Positions 3,112-54,365 are shown, numbered from the stretch's first letter. The stretch: DNA of 64,000 nucleotides from Candidatus Uhrbacteria bacterium (GCA_016188475.1 JACPHT010000001.1:138-64137), one strand, 5' to 3'. Notes: generated from the letters alone by a model not told the origin. Numbers and translations are program-made.

Positions 3112-4374
3112 TTACACATCATACTCTCTCATCGACAACTGTGCTTCTATTTGCTTAATCGCGTCAATAACAACCGAAACAATGATTAAAATTGAAGTTC
3201 CACCAATCACCAAGTTTGGATTGCCAGTGGCTTGTTTAACGATTAAAGGCAAAACAGCAATCACAGAAAGAAATGTTGCACCAAGAAGTAGGATTCGATT
3301 TGAAACCAACCCAAGATAGTCTGATGTATTTTTCCCAGGACGAATACCTGGAATGAACCCGCCCTGTTTTTGAAGATTTTCAGCGACTTGTTCGGGATGA
3401 AAAATAACTGCTGTATAAAAATACGCAAACAAAAACACTAATACGAAATAACTGATGCCGTAAAATAATTGATTTTGGAATAGTTGAACTGTTTGCTCTG
3501 CAATGTTTCGCAATAATTCTGTTTTCGCGCCCAAGAAAAATTGCGCGATAACAGTTGGAAACAAAATTATCGAAATCGCAAAAATAATTGGAATAACACC
3601 GCTCATATTCAGTCGAAGTGGAATGTGTGAAGTCACAGCTCCTGACAAACGCGCGCCCTGAATGTGACGGGCATATTGAACAGGAATGTTTCTCTGTGCT
3701 TCATTCATGATGACGATTCCTATGATTGTTATAATCGCAACAACGACAAACAAAATGAGCGTGATAAGTTGAGAGCGATCATAAACCGATAATGTCTGGC
3801 TCAAAAGAGTTGGAAGTCCGGCAATAATTCCAGCCAAAATCAAAATAGAAATTCCGTTTCCAACATTCTTTTCTGAAATCAACTCTCCAATCCACATCAA
3901 AAAAATTGTTCCAGCAGTCATTGAAAGAATCGCAAACAACATTGTGATAATATCTTTGTCTTGAAAAAACGATCCCTTTTGCGACATCAAAATAATAAGA
4001 CCGTAACCTTGAATAAATCCAAGAGGAACTGTCGCAAGTCGTGTCCATTGATTCATTTTTTGACGACCCTGTTCTTCCTTCTGCATTTCCTCAAGTGAAG
4101 GAATAATCATCGCCAGCAACTGAAAAATAATCGACGCTGTGATATATGGCGCAACTCCCATTGCGACAATCGAAAAATTTTTTAGTGTGCCTCCTGAAAA
4201 GATATTAAGAAGACCAAAAAGTTGATTTCCAGAAAAAAGATCTTTAAGAGCAGACGCGTCAATGCCAGGAACAGGAATATGCGCGGCAATTCGAAACACA
4301 ATCAGCATGAGAATCACGAACAAAATGCTTTTGCGCACTTCGCGTGTTTTCCAAATGCGAATGATTGTGTTCAT
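3112..4374 (-). CDS. secY: preprotein translocase subunit SecY
   Basis: 420 aa polytopic membrane protein with SecY signature regions, in the conserved position after rplO. Confidence 0.95.
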   Translation of the reverse strand: MNTIIRIWKTREVRKSILFVILMLIVFRIAAHIPVPGIDASALKDLFSGNQLFGLLNIFSGGTLKNFSIVAMGVAPYITASIIFQLLAMIIPSLEEMQKEEQGRQKMNQWTRLATVPLGFIQGYGLIILMSQKGSFFQDKDIITMLFAILSMTAGTIFLMWIGELISEKNVGNGISILILAGIIAGLPTLLSQTLSVYDRSQLITLILFVVVAIITIIGIVIMNEAQRNIPVQYARHIQGARLSGAVTSHIPLRLNMSGVIPIIFAISIILFPTVIAQFFLGAKTELLRNIAEQTVQLFQNQLFYGISYFVLVFLFAYFYTAVIFHPEQVAENLQKQGGFIPGIRPGKNTSDYLGLVSNRILLLGATFLSVIAVLPLIVKQATGNPNLVIGGTSILIIVSVVIDAIKQIEAQLSMREYDV

Positions 4375-4376
4375 AA

Positions 4377-4820
4377 TTATTTGATCGCGATTACAACCCC
4401 GCCGGCTTTTTCAATTTTTTGTTTTGCAACTTGAGAAACTTCGCACCCTTCAATAGTTAACGAGATTCCTATCTCTCCTGACCCTAAAATCTTAACACCA
4501 GAATCAATTTCAGTCACTAAACCTTTTTGTTGTAATAGTTTCTTTGTAACTTTCGCGCCATTTACAAAATATTTTGCAAGCTCTAACACATTAACGACAC
4601 TTGGTTTTGCGGCTATACTCTGAAACCCGCGATGTTTTGGAGTCGAAAGCATTATGCCTCGCAAACCTCTCAATTTTAGACCTGAACGACCGCCAGAACG
4701 CGCGCGTTGACCTTTCACGCCACGACCAGAGTACGAACCTGTTGATCCCAAACCACGTCCAACTCTCTTTTTGGCCGTTCTAGATCCTTTTTTTGGTTTT
4801 AGTGTTTCAAGTGACAACAT
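4377..4820 (-). CDS. rplO: 50S ribosomal protein L15
   Basis: Gly/Arg-rich N-terminus GRGLGSTGSYSGRG...; position between rpsE and secY. Confidence 0.9.
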   Translation of the reverse strand: MLSLETLKPKKGSRTAKKRVGRGLGSTGSYSGRGVKGQRARSGGRSGLKLRGLRGIMLSTPKHRGFQSIAAKPSVVNVLELAKYFVNGAKVTKKLLQQKGLVTEIDSGVKILGSGEIGISLTIEGCEVSQVAKQKIEKAGGVVIAIK

Positions 4821-4823
4821 AAG

Positions 4824-5489
4824 TTATTCGTTTGTGATTGATTTGATTTCTTCAATTTCAATTTTCTTATTCATTCTCTTTCCTTTGCTTCCAAATTGCT
4901 GAAGAGCTGAAAGCGCGGCTCGCGCAATGTTGATTTTATTTGAAGAATTGAGAACACGCGATACAACGTTTGGAACCCCAGCATATTCAAGTACGGTTCG
5001 CACAGCTCCACCGGATTTCAAACCTGTTCCTTTTGGCGCTGGTTTGAGCAAAACAATCGCTGAACCGTCTTTTACTAAAACATCATGCGGAATAGTTTCG
5101 TTTTCAATCGGAACTGTGATGATATTTTTCTTTGCTTGTCGATAAGCTTTTTCAACAGCGATTTGAACGTCCGCGCCCTTTGCAATTCCAAGACCGACCT
5201 TTCCCTTTTTATCGCCGATCACAAGCGCGGCGCGGAAAGACATTCGTTTCCCTCCGGCAGTAACACGAGTAACACGCGCTAAATCCAAAATCTTTTGTTC
5301 ATATTCTCGAACTTGTTGGGTTTTCCCTCGCGCCCTGCCACGACTTCCACTACTTTCCCCACCACGACGATTTCCACTTCGATTTCTTTGATCTCCACCA
5401 CCTCTTGAATTTCGATTACCTGAACGTGGCGCAACTTGTTTTGTTGGTTCAGTGGTTTGTGCTTGAATTGTTGGTTGCTGTTCTGTCAT
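4824..5489 (-). CDS. rpsE: 30S ribosomal protein S5 with Arg/Gly-rich N-terminal extension
   Basis: Conserved S5 core VTRVTAGGKRMSFRALVIGD...; start set at MTEQQ, which abuts the rplR stop; the longer ORF runs to 5570. Confidence 0.85.
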   Translation of the reverse strand: MTEQQPTIQAQTTEPTKQVAPRSGNRNSRGGGDQRNRSGNRRGGESSGSRGRARGKTQQVREYEQKILDLARVTRVTAGGKRMSFRAALVIGDKKGKVGLGIAKGADVQIAVEKAYRQAKKNIITVPIENETIPHDVLVKDGSAIVLLKPAPKGTGLKSGGAVRTVLEYAGVPNVVSRVLNSSNKINIARAALSALQQFGSKGKRMNKKIEIEEIKSITNE

Positions 5490-5490: not shown

Positions 5491-5856
5491 TTATATCTTG
5501 AGTCCGCCTTCTCGCGCACCTTCTGCAATAGCGGCAACGCGTCCATGATAGCGATAAGAGCCTCTGTCAAATACTGCTTGCTTCAAACCTTTTGCAACAG
5601 CTTTCTCTGCTAATTTTTTTCCAACCTCTTTTGCAATATCAACAGGTTTTGCTTTGGCTTCAACATCTTTATCTGAAGATGAAACAAGTGTTTTCCCTGA
5701 CGTGTCATCAATTAGCTGTGCGTAGATGTGCTTCAAACTTCGCTTAACGCTCAAACGAGGACAATCAAAAGTACCAGAAATTCGCGCGCGTGTTCTGTGT
5801 GCGCGTCGCAAAGCGTGGACCTGTTTGAGTTTGATATTTTTTGACATACCTTTCAA
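5491..5856 (-). CDS. rplR: 50S ribosomal protein L18
   Basis: 121 aa; L18 motifs (RLSVKRS...HIYAQLIDD...GRVAA). Confidence 0.9.
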
Positions 5857-6456: not shown

Positions 6457-6849
6457 TTATGAGATTTCACAGATTACTTCACCACCAAGTCTGCGTGCTC
6501 TCGCTTCTTTGTTAGTCATGAGTCCATTTGGTGTTGAAATAATTGCAATTCCAATATCAGACAACACGCGCGGTAGTTCAGTCGATTTCGCGTACACTCG
6601 ATTTCCAGGTTTGCTAACTCGCTTAATCATTCGAATGTATGGTTGTTTGTTGTCGTACTTCAAGACAAGGCGAAGTTCTGGAAACTTCTCACCTTTTATT
6701 TCTTCAACCTTTCCAATATACCCTTCGGCTTCTAATATTTTTGCAATATGAAATTTGATCTTCGATGATGGAAGAGTGATGACTTCTTTTTTAACTTGCT
6801 GCGCATTTCGAATGCGAGTAAGCATGTCTGAAATTGGATCTGTAATCAT
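6457..6849 (-). CDS. rpsH: 30S ribosomal protein S8
   Basis: MITDPISDMLTRIRNA is the canonical S8 start; the ORF track extension to 6933 reads through the intergenic hairpin element and is probably not translated. Confidence 0.85.
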   Translation of the reverse strand: MITDPISDMLTRIRNAQQVKKEVITLPSSKIKFHIAKILEAEGYIGKVEEIKGEKFPELRLVLKYDNKQPYIRMIKRVSKPGNRVYAKSTELPRVLSDIGIAIISTPNGLMTNKEARARRLGGEVICEIS

Positions 6850-6855
6850 ATAGTG

Positions 6856-6977
6856 ATCTTTGCAAAACTCGAGATATTTCGACTTACGGGGCCCCACAAA
6901 TATCTCACCGTAATTTTCATTACGCCTCGACATTTGTCTCCCCCGTGCGTCGAAATCTCATCAAGTTTTGCAAAGAT
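6856..6977. repeat. about 122-bp long-hairpin element, copy A, rpsN-rpsH spacer
   Basis: About 90% identical to 11569-11693 in the same orientation; nested dyad symmetry (CTTTGCAAAAC...GTTTTGCAAAG outer arms, GAGATATTTCGAC...GTCGAAATCTC inner, GGGGCCCC core). Confidence 0.7.
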
Positions 6978-6987
6978 CTAATAATAT

Positions 6988-7173
6988 TTACCAGCTTGAT
7001 TTTCTTATTCCAGGAATTTCACCTCGATTCGCAAGTTCGCGGAAACAAATACGGCACAATCCGAACACGCGAATATATCCACGGTGTCTGCCACATCGCC
7101 AACAGCGATTCACCGCGCGTGTGGAAAATTTAGGCTTTTGTCTGGATTTAGCAATTTGATTTTCCGTTGCCAT
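6988..7173 (-). CDS. rpsN: 30S ribosomal protein S14 (zinc-binding type Z)
   Basis: 61 aa with CWRCGR...CRIC zinc ribbon. Confidence 0.85.
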
Positions 7174-7175
7174 AA

Positions 7176-7712
7176 TTATTTCGTAAGAGGGAGACCGAGA
7201 TGTTTAAGTAGAGCTTCCGCTTCTTTGTTAGACTTTGCTGTTGTTCCAATCGTTACTTGCAAACCATGGATCATTTCAATTTCATCACTTCTGATTTCTG
7301 GAAAGGCTGTATGTTCTTTAAAACCGATTGAGTAATTTCCATTTCCGTCAAAAGCTTTTGGTGAAAGCCCGCGAAAATCTCTAACACGCGGGAGCGACAC
7401 ATTCAAAAGCTTGTCCAAAAACGTCCACATTCTTTTTCCTCGCATTGTAACTTTCATTCCAACTACCATTCCTTCGCGAATTTTGAAAGCTGAAATTGAT
7501 TTGCGAGCAAGTGTCTTAACTGGTTTTTGACCAGTAATGCGTATTAACGTTTGTTCTGCTGTTTCCATGTACTTTGCATCTTTCAATCCTGGACCAATTC
7601 CAATATTAAGCGTAACTGCTTTCATATTTGGAACAGCGTTCACGTTTTTATACCCAAACTCTTTCATAAGTTTGGGAACGATTTCTTTTTTGTATGTCTC
7701 TTTCAAAGCCAT
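7176..7712 (-). CDS. rplE: 50S ribosomal protein L5
   Basis: 178 aa; L5 signature, position after rplX. Confidence 0.9.
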
Positions 7713-7715
7713 ATT

Positions 7716-8039
7716 TTATTCTACGTCCTCTTTTATACCTTTTGATTTGATCACACGAATTTTTCGTGTTTTTCCATCAGCTTCAATTTTTTTATATCCC
7801 ACCCTTCCACTTTTTCCACTTTTTGGTGAAATAAGTTTAACGTTTGAGACGTGAATAGGCGAAGCAAATTGAATTTTTTGTCCTGGCTGATTCGCTCGCT
7901 TTCGCAAGTGACGCGTCATCATGTTTATCCCCTCAACAACCACTCGTTCAACTTTTGGAAAAACCTGAATAATGACGCCTTCTTTCCCGCGATCTTTTCC
8001 TGTTAGGATTTTAACTTTGTCTCCTGTTTTGATTTTCAT
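7716..8039 (-). CDS. rplX: 50S ribosomal protein L24
   Basis: MKIKTGDKVKILTGKDRGKEG KOW motif; start at the internal Met of ORF 7716..8156. Confidence 0.85.
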   Translation of the reverse strand: MKIKTGDKVKILTGKDRGKEGVIIQVFPKVERVVVEGINMMTRHLRKRANQPGQKIQFASPIHVSNVKLISPKSGKSGRVGYKKIEADGKTRKIRVIKSKGIKEDVE

Positions 8040-8043
8040 ACTA

Positions 8044-8415
8044 TTACAAAACTTCAGGCGCCAGTGAGATAATTTTCGTATACCCGCCGGCACGCAACTC
8101 GCGAGCGATAGGTCCAAAGATGCGAGTACCTTTTGGTTCTTTTGTTTTTTTGTCAATTATAACAGCGGCGTTTTCACTGAAACGAATATACGTTCCGTCT
8201 TTTCTTCGAATTTCTTTGCATGTTCGCACGATTACTGCCGTAACAACATCGCTCTTTTTTACACTCGCATGTGGAACAGCTTCTTTAACAGACGCTACAA
8301 CAAGATCGCCGATAGTTGCATATCGTTTTTGATGTCCACCAAGTACGCGAATAACTCCCAGCTTTTTCGCGCCAGTGTTATCTGCAACTTTTAGCATTGA
8401 TCGAAGTTGTACCAT
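8044..8415 (-). CDS. rplN: 50S ribosomal protein L14
   Basis: [18 protein letters not shown]..., 123 aa. Confidence 0.9.
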
Positions 8416-8421
8416 ATAAGT

Positions 8422-8670
8422 TTATGCTGAACGAACAACAATCCATCTTTTTGTTTTAGAATATGGACGGCATTCTTGAAACACGACTGAATCTCCAATT
8501 TTATGTGCCTTTTTTTCATCATGTACGTGATACTTTTTGCTTCTTACGTAACGCTTTCCATATTTTGGATGAACAACTGTTCGATCAACACGAACCACGA
8601 TCGTCTTTTCCATTTTGTCAGAAACGACGATTCCTGTAAGAGATCGACAGTTGTGATTTTGTGTTGACAT
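8422..8670 (-). CDS. rpsQ: 30S ribosomal protein S17
   Basis: 82 aa; LTGIVVSDKMEKTIVVRV... S17 OB fold. Confidence 0.9.
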   Translation of the reverse strand: MSTQNHNCRSLTGIVVSDKMEKTIVVRVDRTVVHPKYGKRYVRSKKYHVHDEKKAHKIGDSVVFQECRPYSKTKRWIVVRSA

Positions 8671-8672
8671 AT

Positions 8673-8858
8673 CTATTTAGCTAAAGGAAGAATTGATAGA
8701 ATGCGAGCGATTGTTTGTTTTGTCTTTCGAATATCGCGCACATTTTTTAATTGATTCGCAGAACGTTTGAACTCAAGTTCTTTAAGATGCGTTCTTGCAA
8801 GTTCAAGCTCGTGAACAAGTTCTTCTTTTGATTTTTCGCGTAAGGTTTTCATTTCCAT
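8673..8858 (-). CDS. rpmC: 50S ribosomal protein L29
   Basis: 61 aa helical protein between rplP and rpsQ. Confidence 0.8.
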   Translation of the reverse strand: MEMKTLREKSKEELVHELELARTHLKELEFKRSANQLKNVRDIRKTKQTIARILSILPLAK

Positions 8859-8862
8859 ATCT

Positions 8863-9282
8863 TTATTCTAACTCGCGTGAGATTATCCTTGTTCTGACTG
8901 GAAGCTTGTGCCCGGCAAGCGTAAGAGCTTTGCGAGCAAGTTCTTCATCAATTCCACCCATTTCAAACATTATTGTTCCTGGTCTCACAATTGCAACATA
9001 ATGATCAACCGCACCTTTTCCTTTTCCCATAGGCATTTCTGAACCTTTTGCGGTTACAGGCTTGTCTGGAAAAATGCGGATCCAAATTTTTCCGCCGCGC
9101 TTGATAGCGCGCGTCATTGCGCGTCTGGCAGCCTCAATTTGACGCGATGTTACCCATGCGCCTGTTGTGGCTTTAATGCCGAACGTTCCAAACGCAATTG
9201 CAATTTTTGTTGTTGCAACACGTTTGTTACGGGCTCGGCCCTTGTGCCATTTGCGATGTTTTACTTTTTTCGGAATAAGCAT
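8863..9282 (-). CDS. rplP: 50S ribosomal protein L16
   Basis: [19 protein letters not shown]... canonical L16 start. Confidence 0.9.
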
Positions 9283-9303
9283 ACTAATCTTTTCGTCTCA
9301 CTT

Positions 9304-9966
9304 TTAACTTTTCTCTTCTTCTCCCCTTTCAAACACCTCACCTCTGTTTATCCATACCTTTACTCCAATTGCTCCCCAGATAGTTTGAGCTTTGACTGAA
9401 GCAAAATCTATGTCTGAACGAAGATTATGAAGTGGGGTTTTTCCTTGAGATATCATTTCTGTGCGAGCAATTTCAGCGCCATTTAATCTTCCACTGATAA
9501 TCACCTTTGCGCCTTGCGCGCCCGCTTTAATTACACGCTCTACCGCTGACTTCATAACACGTCGAAACGGCATGCGCTTTTCAATTTCGAAAGCCATCTG
9601 TTGAGCAACCACGTTCGCGCAAAGAGATGATTGTTTCAACTCTTTTACGTTGATGCCAATCCCAACTCGCTTTCCGCGATAAAACTCATTCTTAAGTTTA
9701 CGTGTCAAATCTTCAATTCCGGCTCCAGCTCTTCCAATTATAAGACCTGGCTTTGATGCAAAAATTGAAATTTTCAAATCTTGTCGTGAACGTTCCATTT
9801 CAATGCGATCAATCAACGCTTCTTTGAGTTCCTTTTTTAAAAACGCGCGAATTTTAACGTCTTCAGAAAGATTTTGTTTGAATTGTTTTCGATTAGCAAA
9901 CCAGACCGCGTCCCAGCCGCGGGTGACACCTAGTCTGAATACTCGTGGATGTACTTTGTGTCCCAT
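9304..9966 (-). CDS. rpsC: 30S ribosomal protein S3
   Basis: MGHKVHPRVFRLG... KH domain; start at the internal Met of ORF 9304..9978. Confidence 0.9.
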   Translation of the reverse strand: MGHKVHPRVFRLGVTRGWDAVWFANRKQFKQNLSEDVKIRAFLKKELKEALIDRIEMERSRQDLKISIFASKPGLIIGRAGAGIEDLTRKLKNEFYRGKRVGIGINVKELKQSSLCANVVAQQMAFEIEKRMPFRRVMKSAVERVIKAGAQGAKVIISGRLNGAEIARTEMISQGKTPLHNLRSDIDFASVKAQTIWGAIGVKVWINRGEVFERGEEEKS

Positions 9967-9967
9967 A

Positions 9968-10366
9968 TTATTTTTCAAGACCTTCTAACTTCTTCAGCTT
10001 CTTTAACTTCTTCAGTTTCTTTTTTTGAATATCTTTTACTTCGTCCAGCACAATCATTATATGTGTTGATCTCTTTCGAATCGGCGAAGAACGTCCCATC
10101 GCTTTTGAAGTCCAGCGATGCAATGTTTGACCATCATTTCCAACAATTTCTTTCACATACAAAGTCGCTTCATCCAGTTTAAAATTATTCTTTGCGTTTG
10201 CAATCGCTGAATTCAAAAGTTTTAGAACTGGCATAGCAGCCTCTTTTTTGATGAATTTCAATTGTGCTTGCGCTTCAGTTACTTTCTTGCCACGAATGAC
10301 GTCAATAACTAATCGAACTTTCCGTGGTGAAATGCGCACTGAACGCGCGCTTGCCTTTACTTCCAT
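9968..10366 (-). CDS. rplV: 50S ribosomal protein L22 with KKLKKLKKLKK C-terminal tail
   Basis: MEVKASARSVRISPRKVRLV... L22 N-terminus. Confidence 0.9.
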   Translation of the reverse strand: MEVKASARSVRISPRKVRLVIDVIRGKKVTEAQAQLKFIKKEAAMPVLKLLNSAIANAKNNFKLDEATLYVKEIVGNDGQTLHRWTSKAMGRSSPIRKRSTHIMIVLDEVKDIQKKKLKKLKKLKKLEGLEK

Positions 10367-10375
10367 ATATATAGA

Positions 10376-10705
10376 CTACTTATTTTTTGGCGCCGTTGTA
10401 GAAGCCGGCGCTGTTGGTGCCGCTGTTCCTGTTGTTTCTTCTTTCTGAACTTTACCTCCATGGCGAACAAACTTTCGTGTTGGTGAAAATTCTCCAAGTT
10501 TATAACCTACCATGTTTTCAACAATGCGAACCTTTACGAAATCTTTTCCATTATGCACGGCAAAAGTAAATCCAACCATTTCTGGAGTAATAGTCGAAGA
10601 TCGCGCCCATGTTTTGATCGGCGTTGGATCTCCCTGCCTAATTTTGCCAAGCTTTTTTATAATGCTTGGATGGACAAAAGGTCCTTTTTTAAGACTTCGT
10701 GACAT
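10376..10705 (-). CDS. rpsS: 30S ribosomal protein S19 with Ala/Pro/Thr-rich C-terminal extension
   Basis: [18 protein letters not shown]... S19 start at the internal Met of ORF 10376..10729. Confidence 0.9.
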
Positions 10706-10709
10706 AATT

Positions 10710-11562
10710 TTATGCTTTTCCGCCAACAAATCTTCCTAGCTTACGACGTTTAATTATCCATTGGTCTGATGCTTTCTTTCGGCGTGTTTTAACACCAAGC
10801 GCTGGTTTTCCAGATGGTGTTTTTGGACGTTTCAAACCAATTGGATGTTTTCCTTCTCCTCCACCGTGTGGGTGATCAACAGGATTCATTACTTTTCCGC
10901 GAACTGATGGCCTGATTCCACGATGACGTACTCGCCCGGCTTTTCCCCAGCGTATAAGTCGTCGGTCAGGATTTGAAACCTGTCCAACAGTTGCCATACA
11001 TTCTTTTGGAACCATGCGCATTTCTCCAGAGGGAAGTTTAACTGTCGCGTATGCGCCTTCAACAGCCATAAGTTGTGCTAATGTGCCTGCACCTCGAACC
11101 ATCTGTGCTCCCTTTCCAGGTCTTAGCTCAACATCAAACACCTCAATTCCAATTGGAATATGCTGAAGTTGAAAACGATTACCAATATGAATTTCCCCTT
11201 TTTGTTTTGATGAAATAATTTGATTTCCAACTTCCAGTCCAATAGGTGCAATCATATATCTTTTTTCTCCGTCAGAATAATGCAAGAGTGCAATTCTGGC
11301 TCCACGGTTTGGATCGTATTCAATAGTTGCCACCTTGGCAGGAACTTCAAACTTGTCGCGCTTAAAATCAATAAGCCTGATTCGTCGATCTTCACCACCA
11401 CCGCGATGACGAACAGTAATTTTTCCATTTGTTCTTCCAGAAAACTTTTTTCTTTTGATCGTCAATGAACGCTCGGGTTTCGAGCGTGTGATGTCTTCGA
11501 ACGTATCAACACTTGAGATACGACGTCCGGCTGTTGTTGGGCGATATCTTCGAACTGGCATA
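10710..11562 (-). CDS. rplB: 50S ribosomal protein L2
   Basis: [14 protein letters not shown]... start; GGGEG..HP motif. Confidence 0.9.
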
Positions 11563-11568
11563 TTGGTA

Positions 11569-11693
11569 ATCTTTACAAAACTCGCGATATTTCGACTTAC
11601 AGGGCCCCACAAATATCTCACCGTAATTATCATTACGCCTAGACATTTGTTTCCCAGTGCGTCGAAATCTCATCGATTTTTGTAAAGATTATT
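11569..11693. repeat. about 125-bp long-hairpin element, copy B, rplW-rplB spacer
   Basis: Second copy of the element at 6856-6977; outer stem shows two compensatory pair changes relative to copy A. Confidence 0.7.
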
Positions 11694-12054
11694 AGACTCC
11701 TTCGTAAACTTCTATTTTTTTACCTTCTGGCAAAGTGACAATGGCTTTCTTCCAATTCTTTCGTTTTCCGACGTTGCGTCCAAATCTGACAATTTTTCCT
11801 TCAACTCTCTGAACATTAACCGAAACTGGAGTCATTCCATACATTGTTCTAACAGCATTGCGAACTTGAATTTTTGTCGCGTCTTTTGAAACAACAAAAA
11901 CATATTGTCCTTTCGCTGCCAAGTGCGCGGATTTTTCCGTAACCATTGGTCGCAAAATGACATCCGATACAACCTTGCCGGTTTTCAAAACTGGAGCCGT
12001 TATTTTCGGTTCTTCTTTCTCGTCTTCTTTTTTATCTTTCTTAAACCATGCCAT
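11692..12054 (-). CDS. rplW: 50S ribosomal protein L23
   Basis: 120 aa; L23 core motifs ILRPMVTEKS and DATKIQVRNAV. Confidence 0.85.
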   Translation of the reverse strand: MAWFKKDKKEDEKEEPKITAPVLKTGKVVSDVILRPMVTEKSAHLAAKGQYVFVVSKDATKIQVRNAVRTMYGMTPVSVNVQRVEGKIVRFGRNVGKRKNWKKAIVTLPEGKKIEVYEGV

Positions 12055-13308: not shown

Positions 13309-13601
13309 AAGAAAAGCCGTTAACCTCTAGCTTTTAGCTATTAGCTCGATTACCCGCCTTTTTTTAAAGGCTAATGGCTAAAGGCTAATTGCAATAATTA
13401 CTTATATAAAAGCTAGAAGCCAAACGTAGAAAAATTCTCCACGGCTAGCTTCTAGCTCAAAACTGTTAAAAAGTTTTGAGAATATTAAATTAAATGAATC
13501 GTAAACTCCTTAAATATGATCTTTCAAAGCCCGGGAAGGTTTTCACATAGACCGATGTCTATAAGGATCTTTCTTCCCTGTTTGTCGGATCATTTGCGAT
13601 T

Positions 13602-15347: not shown

Positions 15348-15716
15348 CTATTCCACAGGTTCAAGATAAAACTCTTCTTCGCCAAAATTATTGTCTTCTT
15401 TAGGTTTTTCTTGAATTTTTGTGGTGTTTTCCTCAATCGCCTTTTCGACGTTTTTGTTGGTGAATTCTTGATACTGTTTTTCAATCTCTTCGATCTCTTT
15501 TTCGTCCATTTCGCTCATATTCCAAGTTTCAGTGTCAGAATTGGCAGATTTCATGACATCAAAAAGGTCCTTTTCTTTAGAATCTTTATTCAAAAAGGAC
15601 TCATATTTTGGCAAATCCATCACAACAAAAACATCATTTCCGTCTGGATCTGTAACAATCATCGTGTCGCCCGTTTTACGGACGAGATTCAAAATGTGGC
15701 GAAATTGAGAAGTCAT
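15348..15716 (-). CDS. small protein with Phd/YefM-like N-terminal fold and acidic C-terminal tail
   Basis: N-terminal pattern FRHILNLVRKTGDTMIVTDPDGNDVFVVMDLPKYESFL resembles the Phd/YefM antitoxin fold; no toxin partner is visible. Confidence 0.3.
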   Translation of the reverse strand: MTSQFRHILNLVRKTGDTMIVTDPDGNDVFVVMDLPKYESFLNKDSKEKDLFDVMKSANSDTETWNMSEMDEKEIEEIEKQYQEFTNKNVEKAIEENTTKIQEKPKEDNNFGEEEFYLEPVE

Positions 15717-15925: not shown

Positions 15926-15972
15926 CAAAAAACACTTTCGGTAAATCCGAAAGTGTTTTATTTTATTATGTT
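15926..15972. terminator. bidirectional intrinsic terminator
   Basis: AACACTTTCGG-taaat-CCGAAAGTGTT perfect hairpin with A-tract upstream and T-tract downstream; overlaps the stop of the minus-strand kinase gene. Confidence 0.6.
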
Positions 15973-16974
15973 ATTAATTTCTTCGATTTTTCGTTTGAAA
16001 TCTTGAAACTCGGCTAACTGACCGCAACAACGAGCAAGATTGTGAGCGCGACGAGACGGATATTTTTTATCATCCCACCCAAAATAACAATCCTCAAAAT
16101 AATCTGACAAAAATCTACAAGCAAGTTCAAGTGTGATAAGGCCGATTGATTTTGAAACCAAGTTAATCTCGCGTTTGGTCATCAAACCATTAGAACCATT
16201 TTTATATCCATCCCAACTCGCTCGAAAAAGCGACAACGAAAATGTGTTATGCGGATCATCTTCACATTTACCGCACCATGAGCGAAACGCATCGCCAAGT
16301 TCAACAAGCAAATTCTGACGCTGACACGTGTCAAGATCGATCACGGCCAAAGCTTTTGATCCAGAAAAAAGTATGTTTGAAATTTTTGGATCTCCGTGAA
16401 TCACGTGTTTTGGAAGATCACTTGGCAAAAAATAATTCGGAAATTCTTTTTTAATGATCTCGATTTCTCTTCGCACATCGTTCATTAAAGGAGAGGGTTT
16501 AATTTTTTTCAAAACGTCACAAAAATGCCGATATACTTTTTTTGATTCATGTAAAACCAAAGTTGAATGAAATTTAAATTCGGCTTTATCAATCGCGAGA
16601 TGAAATTGTCCGTAAATTCTTCCAGCTTCTTTTGCCATTGGAACGTTCGTTAGGCGATCAAAAGTTTTGCCTGGAAGTTTTGTTTGTAAACGCCATTTTT
16701 CTTTTTTATTTTCAGCAAGAATTTTTCCTTGTTTTGTTTTGATACAAATCGGAGATGAAAAATTAAGTAAATTCAAAAATCGTGTGACATTGAAGAAATC
16801 TTGTGCAGTTCCTTGCGAAGACAAAATTGGGTGAAGACGTTGTATGATATACTGGTCTTTGTCAGTTTTGATTGAAAACGTTTTGTGAATCAACCCGATA
16901 CTGATTGGTTTGATTTCCAAAATTGTTCCAATATTATACTGACGCAGTATTGAACGAGGAACTTTTTGATTCAT
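15958..16974 (-). CDS. phosphotransferase-family kinase (APH / choline kinase-like)
   Basis: HGDPKISNILF and AVIDLD motifs typical of the aminoglycoside phosphotransferase / homoserine kinase II fold. Confidence 0.7.
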   Translation of the reverse strand: MNQKVPRSILRQYNIGTILEIKPISIGLIHKTFSIKTDKDQYIIQRLHPILSSQGTAQDFFNVTRFLNLLNFSSPICIKTKQGKILAENKKEKWRLQTKLPGKTFDRLTNVPMAKEAGRIYGQFHLAIDKAEFKFHSTLVLHESKKVYRHFCDVLKKIKPSPLMNDVRREIEIIKKEFPNYFLPSDLPKHVIHGDPKISNILFSGSKALAVIDLDTCQRQNLLVELGDAFRSWCGKCEDDPHNTFSLSLFRASWDGYKNGSNGLMTKREINLVSKSIGLITLELACRFLSDYFEDCYFGWDDKKYPSRRAHNLARCCGQLAEFQDFKRKIEEINNIIK

Positions 16975-22554: not shown

Positions 22555-22676
22555 AGAAAGATATTATATCAAATTCTGAGTACGAATAAAGAAGCAGTAG
22601 CACTATGTCTCCAGGCCATCGGACTGTCGCCGCTGTTCCTTTCGACATAGTGCTACCGCTTCTTTATTATTCGTAT

Positions 22677-26008: not shown

Positions 26009-26142
26009 CCTCGACCGTTGAAATACCATGTTCGTAAGCTAAATTTTATTCCCTGAGCCTATCGAAGGGAATAATGTACAAAAAATAATATTTACTGCCT
26101 TCGATGTTGCTCAGGCAATAATTAGAGTTTTTCAACGGTCCC
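26009..26142. repeat. composite palindromic element with two CCTGAGC-TCGAAGG cores in opposite orientation, flanked by CCTCGACCGTTGAAA / TTTCAACGGTC inverted repeats
   Basis: Cores at 26051-26070 and 26095-26114 match the family found in leuS, trxB, truB and intergenic sites. Confidence 0.6.
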
Positions 26143-34675: not shown

Positions 34676-37078
34676 TTATTTCACAACAATACTTACGATT
34701 CGTCCCTTCACATAAACAACTTTTTCAACTGTCTTACCTTCCAGATATTTTTTAACTTTTTCGTTTTCGAGAGCCAACTGTTTTGCAATTTTTTCTTCAA
34801 CATCAGGAGAGATTTCTAAAATTCCTCGAACTTTTCCATTCACCTGAACAGCGACCGAAATGATTTCCTCTTTTGCCAGTTCTTGATTGTGTATTGGCCA
34901 ACTTTGTTGTTCAAGAAGTTCTTTTCCACCAAGTTGTTCATGAAGTTCGTTTGACAGATGCGGCGCAAATGGACAGAGTAAGCGCAAAAATATCATAAAA
35001 CTTTCTTTTGAGATCGATCCGTTCTCTTTTGCCGCGTTCACAAAAATCATCATCTGCGAAACAGCTGTGTTGAAATGCATGTGTTCAATATCATCCGTGA
35101 CTTTTTTGATTGTTTGATGAAGTAAACGAGTGATCTTTTCTACTTCCGACTTTTCAGACCTTTCAGACTTTTCAGACCTTGTTGCCACATCTCCAACTTT
35201 CTCCAAAAACCTTCTCATACCAACAAGTCCGTTCATGCTCCACGGAACAGGTTCACCAAATGGACCCATAAACAATTCATACAAACGGACTGAATCAGCT
35301 CCGTACTCACTTACCATTTCATCTGGATTCACAACATTGCCTTTTGACTTCGACATCTTTGTTCCATCTTCTGCCAAAACAAGACCATGGCTTGTTCGCT
35401 TAGCATAAGGTTCGCTCACAGCAACATGTCCGCGATCAAACAAAAACTTATTCCAAAAACGTGAGTACAAAAGATGAAGTGTTGTGTGTTCCATTCCGCC
35501 GTTGTACCAATCAACAGGCATCCAATGTTTTAATTTTTTCTTGTCCGCAAACACTTTTTTATTTTTTGAATCAATGTACCGTAAAAAGTACCAACTTGAT
35601 CCTGCCCAATTTGGCATTGTGTCTGTTTCGCGTTTGGCAGGACCTCCACACTTTGGACATTTTGTATTTACCCAATCATGAATCGCGGCAAGAGGCGACT
35701 CGCCATTTTCTGTTGGTTCGTATTTTTCAACATCAGGCAATTGCACAGGAAGTTGTTTTTCTGGGACCGGAATCCACCCACACGCTTCACAATACACAAG
35801 TGGAATCGGCTCTCCCCAATACCTTTGGCGTGAAAAAACCCAATCACGAAGTTTGTATTGAACAGACTTTTTCCCGCCAGATTTCTCAATCGCTTCATCA
35901 AATGAAATGAGCGATCTGTCAACAATCGGTAGCCCAAACTTTTCAGCAAACTCACAATCTCGCTTGTCATGTTGAGGAACAGCCATCACAGCTCCTGTTC
36001 CATATTCACCCAAAACGTAATCAGCGACCCACACAGAAATTTTTTCTTTGTTTGCCGGATTGATGACAAACACGCCTGTTGGAACTCCTGTTTTTTCTTT
36101 ATTCTCTGCCTCGCGTTCTTTTTTATCTCGCTTGAGCGCTTGTTCAATATATCTTTTAACTTCTTCGCTCGACCTCCAACCATCTGCGATCCATTGTTGA
36201 GCTAACTCCGGAGAAATCACCAAAAACGTCGCGCCTAGAATTGTGTCAGGGCGAGTTGTGAAGACCTCGATCGACTCAACATCAGGAGATTGCTTCGCAG
36301 AGTTTACCATGAGCGAAGACAAATTTAAGCCTTCGACAGGCTCAGGCAATAAATTTGTCGAAGTCGAATGACTCACAATGACAAAACTGATTTTCGCTCC
36401 TTCGCTTTTTCCAATCCAATTTTTTTGTTGCGTTTTTATTTTTTCCAAATAATCAACTGTGTCCAAATCTTCCAACAACCGATCCGCGTATTTTGTGATC
36501 GCGATCATCCATTGCGCTTTTTCACGCTTCTCGGTCGGCCCGCCGCAACGTTCGCATTTTCCATCAACAACTTCTTCATTTGCCAAACCGATCTTGCACG
36601 ACACACACCAATTGATCGGCATCTTTGCTTTGTACGCAAGTCCTTCTTTGAAAAATTCCAAAAACATCCACTGCGTCCATTTGTAATATCCAGGATCGGT
36701 CGTATTCACTTCACGAGACCAATCAAAACTCAAACCAAACGATTGAAGTTGACGCTTGAACGTCGCGATATTTTCCGCTGTAACGTCTTGTGGTTTGCGT
36801 CCTGTTTTGATCGCGTAGTTTTCTGTTGGAAGTCCAAACGCATCCCAACCGATTGGATACAAGACATTGAAACCTTCCATTCTCCGCTTGCGAGCAACAA
36901 CGTCCATTGCCGTATAACTTCTCGGATGGCCCATGTGGAGTCCAGCGCCTGACGGATATGGAAATTCAATCAAACAATAGTACTTTGGTTTTTTTGATTT
37001 ATCTTGCGCTTGAAAAACACCGGCTTGTTCCCAGCGCTTCTGCCACTTTTTTTCAATTTGCTTGTGATTATAAGGCAT
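34676..37078 (-). CDS. leuS: leucyl-tRNA synthetase, carrying an in-frame palindromic-element insertion
   Basis: MPYNHKQIEKKWQKRW start; HMGH and KMSKS class I motifs; ORF track extends to 37105. Confidence 0.95.
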   Translation of the reverse strand: MPYNHKQIEKKWQKRWEQAGVFQAQDKSKKPKYYCLIEFPYPSGAGLHMGHPRSYTAMDVVARKRRMEGFNVLYPIGWDAFGLPTENYAIKTGRKPQDVTAENIATFKRQLQSFGLSFDWSREVNTTDPGYYKWTQWMFLEFFKEGLAYKAKMPINWCVSCKIGLANEEVVDGKCERCGGPTEKREKAQWMIAITKYADRLLEDLDTVDYLEKIKTQQKNWIGKSEGAKISFVIVSHSTSTNLLPEPVEGLNLSSLMVNSAKQSPDVESIEVFTTRPDTILGATFLVISPELAQQWIADGWRSSEEVKRYIEQALKRDKKEREAENKEKTGVPTGVFVINPANKEKISVWVADYVLGEYGTGAVMAVPQHDKRDCEFAEKFGLPIVDRSLISFDEAIEKSGGKKSVQYKLRDWVFSRQRYWGEPIPLVYCEACGWIPVPEKQLPVQLPDVEKYEPTENGESPLAAIHDWVNTKCPKCGGPAKRETDTMPNWAGSSWYFLRYIDSKNKKVFADKKKLKHWMPVDWYNGGMEHTTLHLLYSRFWNKFLFDRGHVAVSEPYAKRTSHGLVLAEDGTKMSKSKGNVVNPDEMVSEYGADSVRLYELFMGPFGEPVPWSMNGLVGMRRFLEKVGDVATRSEKSERSEKSEVEKITRLLHQTIKKVTDDIEHMHFNTAVSQMMIFVNAAKENGSISKESFMIFLRLLCPFAPHLSNELHEQLGGKELLEQQSWPIHNQELAKEEIISVAVQVNGKVRGILEISPDVEEKIAKQLALENEKVKKYLEGKTVEKVVYVKGRIVSIVVK
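36290..36395. repeat. palindromic element inserted in-frame in leuS
   Basis: GATTGCTTCGCAGAGTTTACCATGAGCGAAGACAAATTTAAGCCTTCGACAGGCTCAGGCAATAAATTTGTCGAAGTCGAATGACTC; near-identical copy in trxB; encodes NLLPEPVEGLNLSSLMVNSAKQS in LeuRS. Confidence 0.8.
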
Positions 37079-37094: not shown

Positions 37095-37185
37095 TGGTCT
37101 GTCATCCTGAGCCCTTCGACTTCGGTAAAGTTATCGCCTGAGCCTGTCGAAGGCCATAACTTTACCTTCGCTCAGGGTATAAACT
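37095..37185. repeat. palindromic element copies (reverse orientation) upstream of leuS
   Basis: CCTGAGCCCTTCGAC and GGTAAAGTTAT-CGCCTGAGCCTGTCGAAGGCC-ATAACTTTACC. Confidence 0.7.
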
Positions 37186-41663: not shown

Positions 41664-41680
41664 ATAGTGCGCAATTTCAC

Positions 41681-41819
41681 TTAACGGCCGGCGGCTGATC
41701 CGAAGTAAAAAGACACCTGACGTTTTTATGTTACAGGTGTCTTTTTATTTTGGATAGCCGCCTGTTGTGCGACGTCGCTTTGCGACGGAGCGCAACAGAG
41801 GCGAAGCCGCCGGCATAAC
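41681..41819. repeat. cassette-junction element, copy 1 (short variant)
   Basis: TTAACGGCCGGCGGC...AAAAAGACACCTG-acgtttttatgtta-CAGGTGTCTTTTT...GCCGCCGGCATAAC. Confidence 0.85.
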
Positions 41820-41882
41820 GTTTGCGTGTATGCGGTGTGGCGTCAGCCATATCGTATACACGCTGTTGTACGGAGTTTGGGC

Positions 41883-42065
41883 TTATCCTTCTCTTGCTTC
41901 TCTTTCTGCTTCGATTTTTTCCAATATCTCTCGTACTTTTTCAGGAGACGCACCAAGCTCTTCGAAGAATCTTACTTGGTCCGATGGAGGAATGGCCATT
42001 AATTTATCCAGGGCATCTTTGGCCTCAGACTCTTGAACTTCATGCTCTCGTGGTTGTTCTCTCAT
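41883..42065 (-). CDS. cassette-encoded small acidic protein
   Basis: 60-aa ORF flanked by attC-like palindromes. Confidence 0.3.
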   Translation of the reverse strand: MREQPREHEVQESEAKDALDKLMAIPPSDQVRFFEELGASPEKVREILEKIEAEREAREG

Positions 42066-42211
42066 ATGTTTAACTTGTTACTGATAAATAGCTAATGTTT
42101 AAATAATAGGATAAGACCAAATTTCGTGCAACGTTCGCGTATGATCCGACGTGATCGACCAGAGGGAGATCATGTTGGATATACGCTGTTAAGCGCCGTA
42201 CTCATTAACAA

Positions 42212-42448
42212 TTACATCGAAGAAAACGGGTCTCCGCATTGAGGACACCTGTCTGAGTTAACTAATCCGTAACTGGTTTTGCAATTTGCGCAATATACAT
42301 TTGCTGCACTTGTACGTCCGTTGGGATCTGGAACCATGGGCACTTTGCATTGAGAGCAAAGCAACTCATTACTGCCAGCGACGGCGGCAATATCAACTGT
42401 ACTATTGCATTGTGGACATTTGTACCCAAAAAATGAACCTGTTTGCAT
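42212..42448 (-). CDS. cassette-encoded zinc-ribbon protein (four CxxC pairs)
   Basis: CPQCN...CSQCK...CANCK...CPQCG. Confidence 0.5.
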   Translation of the reverse strand: MQTGSFFGYKCPQCNSTVDIAAVAGSNELLCSQCKVPMVPDPNGRTSAANVYCANCKTSYGLVNSDRCPQCGDPFSSM

Positions 42449-42466
42449 ATTTTTTCTTATTAAGAA

Positions 42467-42982
42467 TTAGGAACCTATATAAGTTGCAGTGATGTTTCCT
42501 TCTCCCTCGGCTGTGGATTTTGTGCCAGGTTTGAAAAATGTAGGCTTGGTTGTTTTGATGCCAGTTACATTACCTTTGCCTCTAGCAGTGTGTTCGCCGT
42601 CGATGGTAGTAATGAGAGAATTTAAACTTTTGTTCAAATTCTGGGTGGCCCACTCTTCATGCTCTTTTTTCCATTGTTTTAGTTGATCTACAGAGAAATC
42701 AATGCCATTATTTTTGTCGATCATATCAGCACAATTTGAACAAAGAAAAATACCATTATTTGTAGATTTTCTCTGTTCTGATGTTAAGTTTGAGTCATAT
42801 CTTGGGCCACCCTCTGCCGCAGCGGTTATATGGGCTGCTTTGCCTATGTATATAAATTTGTCCTCATTTTCTGCTGATGGGCAAAGTGTCAAATTTTTGC
42901 AATCAGGATTTGAGCAGATATAGGAGGCCCGTTTTCCTATTGCTTCAACTGTATTTTTATCAAATTCGTCTCGAGTTGACAT
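42467..42982 (-). CDS. cassette-encoded HNH endonuclease-like protein
   Basis: CSNPDCKN...AAHI...NGIFLCSNCADMID resembles the HNH beta-beta-alpha-metal motif. Confidence 0.45.
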   Translation of the reverse strand: MSTRDEFDKNTVEAIGKRASYICSNPDCKNLTLCPSAENEDKFIYIGKAAHITAAAEGGPRYDSNLTSEQRKSTNNGIFLCSNCADMIDKNNGIDFSVDQLKQWKKEHEEWATQNLNKSLNSLITTIDGEHTARGKGNVTGIKTTKPTFFKPGTKSTAEGEGNITATYIGS

Positions 42983-43007
42983 AATTTTGTATGTTAATGG
43001 GTATGGC

Positions 43008-43179
43008 GCTTAACGGCCGGCGGCTGATCCGAAGTAAAAAGACACCTGACGTTTTTATGTTACAGGTGTCTTTTTATTTTGGATAGCCGTCTGTTGTGCG
43101 ACGTCGCTTTGCGACGGAGCGCAACAGAGGCGAAGCCGCCGGCCGTTATGCCGATAGAGCAAAGCGATGTCGGCATAAC
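43008..43179. repeat. cassette-junction element, copy 2
   Basis: Near-identical to the other six copies. Confidence 0.85.
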
Positions 43180-43307
43180 GTCCCGCACTTTGCGATGTTT
43201 TGGCCTGTTATAATTTAGCACGAAGTGCTTGAACAGGCCAAAATATGGGCGTAGCGACTGAAAGGAGCGGAGCCGCAAAGTGCGTGTTAAGTGATGTTTT
43301 TATTTTT

Positions 43308-43931
43308 TCAAAGTATGCCAATTGGGCCGATTATTCTAAAGCCCTTCCGAATTGTTTCTTCGGTGTTGATTTCCCAGCACAGTGTCCCATTATAATCCAA
43401 GAATGAAACACCTAAAATTGCGTTATTTCGGGAGGGCGTTTTACTTGCTTTTTCTTGTATAGAATCAAAAATCTTCTTGGTCTTTCCCTTCATATTTTGA
43501 GGAAATTGTACCGGTTTTCTTTGTAGTTCATATGTGACTAAAAATTGCACAAATTTTTTCCAATTTGCTCGTTCACTTAGGAGTGCTCTACTAATGTTTA
43601 GTTCATCGCAGAGATTTTCAATGTTCGTTTTGAGCAAATGAAGGGAAAGACCTTCAATTACGGCGTCATTAATCCAAGTTCCTTCATTTGGATTTTTGTT
43701 ATGAGCGATCACCGCATCTGTTAAAAGTTCCAAAATTCTGAAAGCCGTAATTGAACCGGAGATTTTTGTGTGCAAGGCCCAATTGGCATACAAATTTAAG
43801 TATGGATATTTAGACTGGAAGCCTTTCTCTTCAATGATGTGCCGAAAGGCTGTCATTATTCGGAGGATATCATTTTTACTCCAATTACTATGCGAGAGTA
43901 ATTCTGTGATGTTTTTGATGTGATCTTCCAT
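43308..43931 (-). CDS. cassette-encoded hypothetical protein
   Basis: 207-aa ORF flanked by 27-bp inverted repeats that begin with GTTAAGTGA. Confidence 0.5.
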   Translation of the reverse strand: MEDHIKNITELLSHSNWSKNDILRIMTAFRHIIEEKGFQSKYPYLNLYANWALHTKISGSITAFRILELLTDAVIAHNKNPNEGTWINDAVIEGLSLHLLKTNIENLCDELNISRALLSERANWKKFVQFLVTYELQRKPVQFPQNMKGKTKKIFDSIQEKASKTPSRNNAILGVSFLDYNGTLCWEINTEETIRKGFRIIGPIGIL

Positions 43932-43949
43932 ACTTAAATTTGAAAAATA

Positions 43950-44035
43950 AAAATTTCACTTAACGTTTCGCGATATCCGACGTTTCGTAGAAATGTGGCT
44001 TTAGCCTTTACGGATATCGCGTGTTAGGCGAGGCT
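43950..44035. other. canonical attC-like site
   Basis: ACTTAAC-GTTTCGCGATATCCG...CGGATATCGCG-T-GTTAGGC: RYYYAAC and GTTRRRY boxes with complementary inner arms. Confidence 0.6.
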
Positions 44036-44064
44036 TCAGCTCTTGAGTTTGAATTTAAACTTTT

Positions 44065-44460
44065 TTAATATTTATCCTTAATGTATTTAAGAACTTCTAT
44101 ATCGTGGTCAATAATCTTTAGCTTGTTTATCTCGGAAAGATGAAACCAACCAAAATTTTGTCCTTCGCCTAAAGTAATTATTTTACTCGGATCAAATTCT
44201 TCCACAAAAACATGTTTTTCATTGGTTTCATCTTTCGACAAAAAATCTTGCTTCATTATCATCTTAGGGTTTTTGAGTGTGTAATTCAGCTCTTCAAGTG
44301 TTTCTCGCTTCACAGCCTGTTCTGGAGTTTCACCAGCTTCAATACCGCCACCGAAAAAAGCCCAATATCCAGGCAACCTTTCAGCATCTTCAGCACGATG
44401 TTGAAGTAAGATTTTTTTGTCTTGGTCGTATAAAATTATAATAGCTACGTTTCTCGCCAT
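44065..44460 (-). CDS. cassette-encoded NUDIX hydrolase
   Basis: Nudix box GGGIEAGETPEQAVKRETLEELNY; ORF flanked by 26-bp perfect inverted repeats TTTGAATTTAAACTTTTTTAATATTT. Confidence 0.8.
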   Translation of the reverse strand: MARNVAIIILYDQDKKILLQHRAEDAERLPGYWAFFGGGIEAGETPEQAVKRETLEELNYTLKNPKMIMKQDFLSKDETNEKHVFVEEFDPSKIITLGEGQNFGWFHLSEINKLKIIDHDIEVLKYIKDKY

Positions 44461-44518
44461 ATAGAAGTTCTTAAATGTTAAAATAAAGAAATATTAAAAA
44501 AGTTTAAATTCAAATTTC

Positions 44519-44690
44519 GCCTAACGGCCGGCGGCTGATCCGAAGTAAAAAGACACCTGACGTTTTTATGTTACAGGTGTCTTTTTATTTTGGATAGCCG
44601 CCTGTTGTGCGACGTCGCTTTGCAACGGAGCACAACAGAGGCGAAGCCGCCGGCCGTTATGCCGACAGAGCAAAGCGATGTCGGCATAAC
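44519..44690. repeat. cassette-junction element, copy 3
   Basis: Near-identical copy. Confidence 0.85.
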
Positions 44691-44921
44691 GTTCGTGTGT
44701 ATCTGAAGTTTTCATTCCGCTTCAATGGAATAAACTTTGATTATTAGATACACGCTTTTTAATAGAACCCCACCCAAATCCTCATCAAAACTAAGGGATG
44801 AAAATTTGGGCGGAGGAAAATTGGCACTCCTTAAGGATTTAATTAACGCCAATTTTCCATAGCCAGATACACGCTGTTATACGCTGTAATAAAAAGCCGA
44901 TTCGTTATTGATTTTGGCAAT

Positions 44922-49547: not shown

Positions 49548-49594
49548 ATTATTTTGCAAATTATTTTGTTTTCAGGAAAAAATCCTCGCAATTT

Positions 49595-54357: not shown

Positions 54358-54365
54358 AATAATTT

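Follow-up and report, generated by a model that had tools for sequence, protein, structure and literature searches.

The analysed stretch of DNA, here referred to as the window, comprises 64,000 nucleotides (nt) from Candidatus Uhrbacteria bacterium (GCA_016188475.1 JACPHT010000001.1:138-64137), and its minus strand carries the S10-spc ribosomal protein (r-protein) cluster. Two junctions within this cluster are filled by a long hairpin, and these two hairpins, referred to as copy A and copy B, are the subject of this work. Copy A is a palindromic element that forms a nested hairpin of approximately 50 bp and occupies positions 6855 to 6978 (minus strand) at the rpsN-rpsH junction. The rpsN gene (6988 to 7173, minus strand; MBI2474808.1) codes for a type Z S14 protein of 61 amino acids (aa) that matches the Pfam family Ribosomal_S14. 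Between its stop codon and the hairpin, which follows 9 nt downstream, the linker (6979 to 6987, minus strand) is fast evolving, as is the 5-nt linker on the other side (6850 to 6854), past which rpsH (6457 to 6849, minus strand; S8, 130 aa) begins at its true start, ATG 6849. Copy B (11567 to 11691, minus strand), also a palindromic element, fills the rplW-rplB junction and begins right after the stop codon of rplW (11692 to 12054, minus strand; L23, 120 aa), the TAA of which (11692 to 11694) abuts the hairpin. The downstream gene, rplB (10710 to 11561, minus strand; L2, 283 aa), has its true start at ATG 11561. The rpsN-rpsH spacer measures 138 nt and the rplW-rplB spacer 130 nt, and each is nearly all one hairpin.

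An initial annotation of this DNA had described a hairpin element present at these two sites in the same orientation on the transcribed strand, with about 90% identity between the copies. We found both copies at these sites and in this orientation, with 13 of 124 hairpin positions differing between them and at most 27 identical bases shared in a run. Diagnostic 18-mers from the element occur only in copies A and B within the 64 kb, with a chance expectation of 0.07. The element is an imperfect inverted repeat over its whole length, in which an outer stem (G/A)ATCTTT(G/A)CAAAA pairs with TTTTG(C/T)AAAGAT(C/T), and its termini read (G/A)A(T/C)CTTTGCAAAAC. The transcribed strand of copy A is predicted to fold with a free energy of -71.7 kcal/mol (z = -12.3) and that of copy B with -56.5 kcal/mol (z = -10.5), with no shuffle being equally stable in either case, while copy A loses 15 kcal/mol of stability when its complement is folded instead. 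The predicted stems agree with the nested hairpin that had been drawn in the initial annotation.

Several familiar categories of intercistronic sequence were considered for these hairpins. A scan of the window detected no terminator-like or promoter-like site overlapping copy A or copy B. An intrinsic (Rho-independent) terminator was rejected since it requires a GC-rich hairpin and a U tract, whereas ACUAUAUG and ACCAAUAUG come after the hairpins; an internal promoter was rejected because no such site overlaps the elements. Rfam 15 gave 0 matches in the whole window at gathering thresholds, and at a relaxed E-value only chance matches to plant microRNA hairpins were obtained, with E above 1. 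The motif CUUGAUGAG prompted a comparison with hammerhead ribozymes, but by inspection core position C3 is a U, no GAAA follows stem II, and there is no Rfam match. Copies A and B are not an assembly artefact, because identical copies are present in the NCBI metagenome-assembled genome and in independent Logan, ENA, and JGI assemblies; several of the Logan assemblies contain the same species with identical elements. It is of note that two independent Logan contigs, L001 (end at 8024) and L002 (end at 6556), stop at one and the same base inside copy A (…AATGAAAATTACGG). Given that copies A and B share so short an identical run, this common break suggests a further near-identical copy or a strain variant in those samples.

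Both copies interfere with gene prediction. As had been noted initially, copy A is in frame with rpsH and creates a spurious extension back to ATG 6933; the N-terminal sequence MITDPISD of S8 is kept in all relatives, supporting ATG 6849 as the start. Copy B had been described as out of frame with rplB, which is correct for the element frame used by copy A but not for another element frame, in which ATG 11633 reads into rplB and yields a spurious 307-aa L2 that is called by gene callers. Public gene calls hold both artefacts, a 158-aa S8 and the 307-aa L2. The earlier argument against a conserved peptide withstood this correction: the extension frames differ between copies A and B, and the rpsH extension has no ATG in the relative L010 and a stop codon in L011. 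A conserved micropeptide was accordingly rejected, as A-type and B-type copies are put into different frames by a 1-nt insertion or deletion and orthologues contain stop codons.

Relatives of the window were collected via an identical or near-identical S14 protein and, for L010, via a 21-mer scan of JGI metagenomes. The statement that such spacers are usually tiny was borne out by the empty sites, as the S14-S8 junction measures only 1 to 15 nt in L012, L015, L016, L017, L018, and L022 and the L23-L2 junction 2 to 17 nt in L010, L011, L012, L014, and L017. The S14-S8 junction is filled in the window, L010, L011, L013, and L014, and the L23-L2 junction is filled in the window and, at the same position, in L016. 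L010 carries the element between rpsN and rpsH, yet its rplW-rplB junction is compact (GGAGTTTAAATATGCC). Over 5 kb, L014 and L010 share 99% identity, and the sole gap between them is a 119-nt element at the L2-S19 junction of L014. On a tree built from six r-protein genes, (((((L010,L013),L011),L012,window),L016),L017),L018, copies A and B are distributed in a patchy manner that no single gain fits, so that repeated gain, precise loss, or recombinational transfer is required.

A covariance model, R1, was built from six copies and scored 158.7 bits on the minus strand of copy A versus 72 bits on the plus strand, and 138.3 bits on copy B. With this model, family members were recognized at the L23-L2 junction of L016 (139.5 bits), in the sense orientation at the S17-L14 junction of L021 (91.3 bits), and antisense to the operon at L2-S19 in L014 (67.8 bits; 25 on the sense strand), at S10-L3 in L017, just after the rpsJ stop codon (70.6 bits; 18 on the sense strand), and at S19-L22 in L021 (51.6 bits). 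A search of the translated open element frame against 1.84 billion representative proteins found P0020, a 47-aa open reading frame (ORF), and through it L020, a 5-kb contig of higher GC content. Two copies (108 and 121 bits) are found on L020: a riboflavin-kinase-like gene and an HU gene flank one of them, and the other separates a 528-aa gene from an L28-like ORF in convergent orientation (rpmB by eye). A profile search in a second frame yielded P0021, a 32-aa ORF that derives from the element and is flanked by a reverse-transcriptase gene and a DUF4178 gene in a glycosyltransferase neighbourhood. Single-frame profile searches matched P0020 and P0021 only; a chimeric query of four element reading frames gave no match in a set of 5.8 billion proteins, and two viral-contig scans with family-level patterns gave 0 matches. 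In total, nine distinct loci of the family are known, with at least six S10-spc junctions (in both orientations) and at least three loci outside the cluster, and two copies each are found in the window, in the 5 kb of L020, and in the 6 kb of L021. L020 also carries an IS30-like transposase gene (positions 3984 to 5048; HTH_38 and a weak rve match) approximately 300 nt from one element copy, with the L28-like ORF in between.

Copies vary in length from 124 to 135 nt and in folding energy from -56 to -85 kcal/mol, but their structure is strongly conserved. Standard pairing accounts for 93.8% of cells in an alignment of 12 copies, and double changes are present at 26 of 45 pairs; none of 500 shuffles reached these values, and slid controls gave approximately 41% pairing and 7 to 11 pairs. 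In GC-rich copies, the sub-apical stem is wholly swapped, from ACAAAUGUC/GACAUUUGU to CAGCCUCC/GGAGGUGG, while the unpaired internal-loop motifs GAUGAG, GGGGAAAC, CGAG, GGUGAG, and AAG remain constant. This evidence for compensatory change is far stronger than that from copies A and B alone, on which the initial annotation had relied. Between these two copies, two double substitutions do preserve pairing, both being G-C to A-U changes (pairs 7/130 and 14/123 of alignment A5), but the change described as C-G to A-T is a one-sided C-to-A substitution that places an A opposite a G and breaks the pair.

Constraint on the hairpin is also evident where copies have diverged in place. Orthologous copy A hairpins differ by 4 to 6%, compared with 20 to 29% at third codon positions of six neighbouring genes, while the flanks of copy A differ at 2 to 5 of 12 positions between orthologues. 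Copy B of the window and its counterpart in L016 differ at approximately 8% of hairpin positions versus 45% of third positions, and of nine stem differences, eight leave the pairing intact (two pairs are compensated and four changes exchange C and U opposite G). In place, the hairpin evolves 3 to 5 times more slowly than third codon positions. Furthermore, when 10 copies were folded on both strands, it was in all 10 the same element strand that folded better, by 8 to 19 kcal/mol, and that contained more G-U (G-T) pairs; this asymmetry holds in two copies that are antisense to the operon. By our own count in the 12-copy alignment, G-U is found at 23 pair positions and A-C at 8. The better-folding element strand does not change with the direction of host transcription, and the asymmetry is a property of the element itself rather than of the host transcript. 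This is a hint that the life cycle of the element includes a single-stranded stage, although the asymmetry could instead have been inherited from an ancestral copy.

Taken together, these data lead us to propose, with a probability of roughly three in four, that the hairpins are copies of a non-autonomous, palindromic mobile element of approximately 130 bp that resembles a MITE (short for miniature inverted-repeat transposable element) and is resident in Candidatus Uhrbacteria, a lineage of the candidate phyla radiation (CPR, or Patescibacteria). The element is well below the upper bound of approximately 400 bp for MITEs, has neither a transposase gene nor a conserved frame, forms a stable hairpin with terminal inverted repeats, and occurs in several dispersed copies, with sites filled in some relatives and empty in others. 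Invasion of an operon by a MITE was among the candidate roles suggested at the outset, and the filled and empty sites, four further operon junctions (three of them antisense), and the copies outside r-protein operons favour it. It had also been proposed that dispersed copies with no operon association would refute an operon-specific element; the nine loci, three of which lie outside S10-spc, fit a plain mobile element and argue against an operon-specific regulator.

How an insertion of this size might be tolerated between essential genes can be outlined as follows. The element would be mobilized in trans by some enzyme, and it would insert into the gap of a few nucleotides that separates a stop codon from the next start, the one place where insertions would be tolerated. 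Once co-transcribed with the operon, the RNA hairpin would hold the upstream stop codon and the downstream AUG approximately 5 to 15 nt apart at the base of the stem, so that translational coupling could survive the insertion. The junctions of this operon are nearly all of the form TAA, 1 to 5 nt, and ATG, and have no Shine-Dalgarno sequence; downstream genes therefore probably rely on termination-reinitiation coupling. At rplW-rplB, the only Shine-Dalgarno-like sequence, GGAG, lies within the end of rplW, and the insertion moves it 130 nt from the rplB start. In copy A, copy B, the L016 copy at L23-L2, and the L021 copy at S17-L14, the stop codon is located 0 to 9 nt before the stem and the AUG 5 to 7 nt after it. 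Such proximity would explain selection for pairing, with a slowly evolving hairpin and fast-evolving short flanks. Cleavage of the outer stem, which comprises approximately 22 bp, by RNase III, which had also been among the roles first suggested, may be an added effect. A more far-reaching version would hold that in these streamlined CPR bacteria several hairpin families, the present one among them, preferentially colonize stop-start junctions of biology's most conserved operon, that each insertion is locked in by structure-dependent coupling or reinitiation and is a selfish insertion under purifying selection without ever being beneficial, and that the strand asymmetry reflects a single-strand-recognizing mobilization new for an element of this size; we consider this version unlikely.

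A number of observations weigh against a mobile element or against parts of this scheme. The R1 model detects only copies A and B in the 64-kb window, the 21-mer scan of JGI metagenomes returned one orthologous locus only, and a contig scan of 185,579 species representatives with the pattern GAGATTTCGAC-N55-75-GTCGAAATATC gave a single chance match in a Calditrichaceae coding sequence. The comparison of filled and empty sites leaves only 1 nt of ambiguity at copies A and B, and no consistent target-site duplication is apparent, three filled/empty pairs included; the candidates are AATA at copy B, TTAA in L014, and ATTAGA at one L020 copy (L020b), and copy A has none. In the fetched DNA, no autonomous element or transposase with the same termini was detected, and in the available DNA the IS30-like gene of L020 shares no visible termini with the element. 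All six operon insertion sites come from DNA sampled around r-protein genes. Rough estimates from the gene tables of relatives gave a P of approximately 0.001 per intergenic nucleotide and approximately 0.13 per junction for enrichment in the r-protein cluster, but with sampling centred in this way we make no claim of enrichment, and a preference for the operon is neither shown nor excluded. Between L010 and L013, the element differs by approximately 5%, compared with 1.6% of third positions overall and 6.8% locally, which indicates that recombination also shapes the region; the slow divergence of the hairpin could then be due to recombination or conversion instead. Finally, the coupling mechanism is one that we infer, and taken by itself it remains a tentative and somewhat doubtful part of the proposal.

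Three other explanations were weighed against a mobile element. The hairpin could be an intercistronic RNA that benefits the host as a processing or stability element, that is, as an RNase III substrate or a barrier to 3' exonucleases, and that tunes the output of operon segments and spreads because it is useful. An outer stem of approximately 22 bp is long enough for RNase III and would suit such a role. The better folding of the transcribed strands of copies A and B, the constraint in place, with one-sided changes that in both copies are mostly G-U compatible on the mRNA strand (7 of 8 transitions), and the presence of family members at six junctions of one operon are all consistent with it, and ERIC and Correia elements have been reported to influence mRNA stability (PMC3184786). 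However, of the six insertions in the operon, three run antisense to the mRNA and yet keep the strand asymmetry of the element, no junction is consistently occupied across relatives, and copies reside in unrelated contexts. Moreover, unrelated hairpin families are found at like junctions and even at the same one, S19-L22, in L012 and L021, which looks like a set of permissive sites rather than one selected function; a beneficial RNA is therefore improbable in our view, though not negligibly so. A more specific proposal, made in the initial annotation, was a binding or autoregulatory site for S8 or L2 that had been duplicated to a second junction. Both window copies do lie directly upstream of r-protein genes, and the S14-S8 copy is kept in four related lineages. 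Nevertheless, the S14-S8 junction is empty in the six relatives named above and the L23-L2 junction in most relatives, and the same element is found beside riboflavin-kinase/HU and reverse-transcriptase/DUF4178 genes, and in both orientations, including sites antisense to the operon. No Rfam r-protein leader or other family matches it. A leader of this kind would be expected at a conserved position, in the sense orientation, and in r-protein operons only, and the distribution of the element departs from this pattern, which makes the idea exceedingly improbable.

The remaining explanation is a variant of the mobile-element proposal with another mobilizing chemistry, in which the element is recognized as a single strand, in the manner of REP sequences and their RAYT enzymes, of IS200/IS605-derived elements, or of integron attC sites, and not as a MITE with terminal inverted repeats and target-site duplications. 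The lack of a consistent target-site duplication would be explained, and the one element strand that folds better and is richer in G-U (G-T) pairs in 10 of 10 copies regardless of host transcription, the excess of G-U over A-C positions, and the conservation of unpaired motifs while the stems covary all point in the same direction. On the other hand, this asymmetry could be an ancestral inheritance and not a product of selection, and at approximately 130 nt the element is far above REP size. The fetched DNA, of which only a few proteins were scanned, showed no HUH or Y1 transposase, no RAYT, and no integron integrase. The candidate R-box, GCAAAAC/GTTTTGC, agrees at only 5 of 7 positions with the attC consensus RYYYAAC/GTTRRRY (compared by eye), and r-protein genes are not cassettes. 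We judge this variant to be rather improbable and retain a MITE-like element as the preferred interpretation.

The element is not alone in filling r-protein junctions, and at least three unrelated hairpin-element families do so in relatives. One occupies the S19-L22 and L18-S5 junctions of L012 (2617 to 2751 and 7535 to 7663), has the inverted ends CCCCGTTAGAAG and CTTCTAACGGGG, and is flanked by TATG on both sides, which suggests a duplication of the start codon region. Another is located at L5-S14 in L012 (5915 to 6000), L015 (2196 to 2281), and L021 and also at S3-L16 in L021 (L021 coordinates 3168 to 3252 and 5549 to 5640), and a further one is located at L24-L5 in L011 (5368 to 5461). Colonization of tight junctions by hairpin repeats is general in this clade. 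In the window itself, a near-perfect, unrelated hairpin of approximately 110 nt (22565 to 22675, minus strand; -55 kcal/mol, z = -8.7) between co-directional genes, flanked by an M50 peptidase and by an ORF of 435 aa, probably represents a further family of palindromic repeats. Palindromic repeats of approximately 95 nt with the core GCCTTCGACAGGCTCAGGCAATAAATTT form a family that is present in six to seven copies in both orientations (36287 to 36381, 53870 to 54016, 54339 to 54366, and 57206 to 57300, with 37100 to 37154 and 26045 to 26070 as reverse complements); some of these lie inside long ORFs and may be in-frame intragenic insertions.

Other features near the operon were noted in passing. 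The 293-nt rpsJ-rplC spacer (13309 to 13601, minus strand) holds a conserved structured leader that is common to a distant relative (L017, 3800 to 4010) and has no Rfam match. Within it, a hairpin formed by GGGAAGAAAG...CUUCCC is accompanied by an AGGAG and by two more hairpins, CUCAAAAC/GUUUUGAG and CUAGAAGC/GCUUCUAG; it may be an uncharacterized S10-operon leader of the clade. Between fusA and tuf, a kinase gene of the APH family and a small ORF resembling PhdYeFM (15958 to 16974 and 15348 to 15716, minus strand) break the usual str-operon order, and this interruption is conserved in L006, L016, and L017. In relatives (L016, 14008 to 14292 and 18330 to 18695; L017, 19599 to 20186), the gap between secY and adk has received a GIY-YIG gene, a 23S_rRNA_IVP-type gene is placed between two tRNA-synthetase ORFs, and a diversity-generating retroelement (bAvd and reverse transcriptase) is located near the operon. 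Further along the window (41673 to 52274), seven repeats of approximately 214 nt (72 to 92% identical) are placed between small same-strand genes, each with terminator-like and GC-rich hairpins, in a layout that looks like a cassette array or an array of paralogous genes.

These findings have consequences at several levels. The S10-spc cluster is usually deemed near-immutable in its tight junctions, but in Uhrbacteria several families of hairpin elements have made it a dynamic landing zone, and the strain-level presence and absence of these elements should provide useful markers for population genomics of the CPR. For annotation, it matters that the element generates false N-terminal extensions of S8 and L2 that are already public. 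An r-protein-binding regulator is effectively excluded, so that binding experiments with S8 or L2 can be spared. If the proposed mechanism of retention were true, it would be a clean natural case of an insertion whose structure is maintained solely to neutralize its own presence. In the literature on MITEs in r-protein operons and on palindromic repeats in the CPR, we found general reviews of small mobile repeats only and no prior description of such an element.

Comparison with known systems places the element among the small palindromic repeats of bacteria. REP/BIME sequences are palindromes located just after stop codons in operons; they lack a target-site duplication, are probably recognized as single strands, and affect the stability or translation of upstream mRNA. 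The element resembles them as an extragenic palindrome that follows stop codons in an operon and in its single-strand logic, but REP units are 20 to 40 nt in length, are often clustered, and have a conserved GTAG, whereas here each copy is one lone hairpin of approximately 125 nt with several internal loops. For this reason, membership in this group was rejected; no RAYT was seen in the DNA scanned. Integron attC sites, among them the Vibrio cholerae repeats (VCR) of approximately 123 to 126 nt, are imperfect palindromes of like length that follow stop codons between co-directional genes and that have extrahelical bases and strand selectivity. An attC site was rejected as well: the R-box consensus is matched at too few positions by a motif that sits 7 bp inside the stem, neither an integrase nor a cassette array was seen at the locus, both orientations occur, and the neighbouring r-protein genes are essential. 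For the proposed coupling, phage T4 gene 38, in which a stable hairpin brings separated translation signals (Shine-Dalgarno and AUG) together, serves as an analogy of mechanism only, because that hairpin is short, gene specific, and located between the Shine-Dalgarno sequence and the AUG, while the present one is a mobile 125-nt insertion between a stop and a start codon.

The closest known kinds are the ERIC/IRU and Correia MITEs. The transcribed Correia hairpin is reportedly processed by RNase III, according to De Gregorio et al. Correia elements (NEMIS or CREE) are MITEs of 100 to 157 bp with inverted ends that are often situated beside or between genes and are co-transcribed, in which the Uhrbacteria element is similar, for co-transcription presumably so; they differ by their 26-bp terminal inverted repeats, TA duplication, IHF site, and hundreds of copies per genome, none of which has been shown for the element described here. 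Filled and empty sites between close strains of Neisseria have been taken as evidence of Correia mobility (PMC3184786). ERIC/IRU sequences of Enterobacteriaceae are imperfect palindromes of approximately 127 bp that are classed as MITEs, are located in transcribed intergenic regions, and form hairpin RNAs that can affect mRNA fate (PMC3184786). They have TA flanks, which are not evident here, and the Uhrbacteria element differs further in its CPR host and its few known copies; sequence kinship was compared via the Rfam scan only. In size, in being one long and imperfect palindrome whose core is conserved, in its location within or after operons in either orientation, and in its presumed co-transcription with them, the Uhrbacteria element parallels ERIC/IRU.

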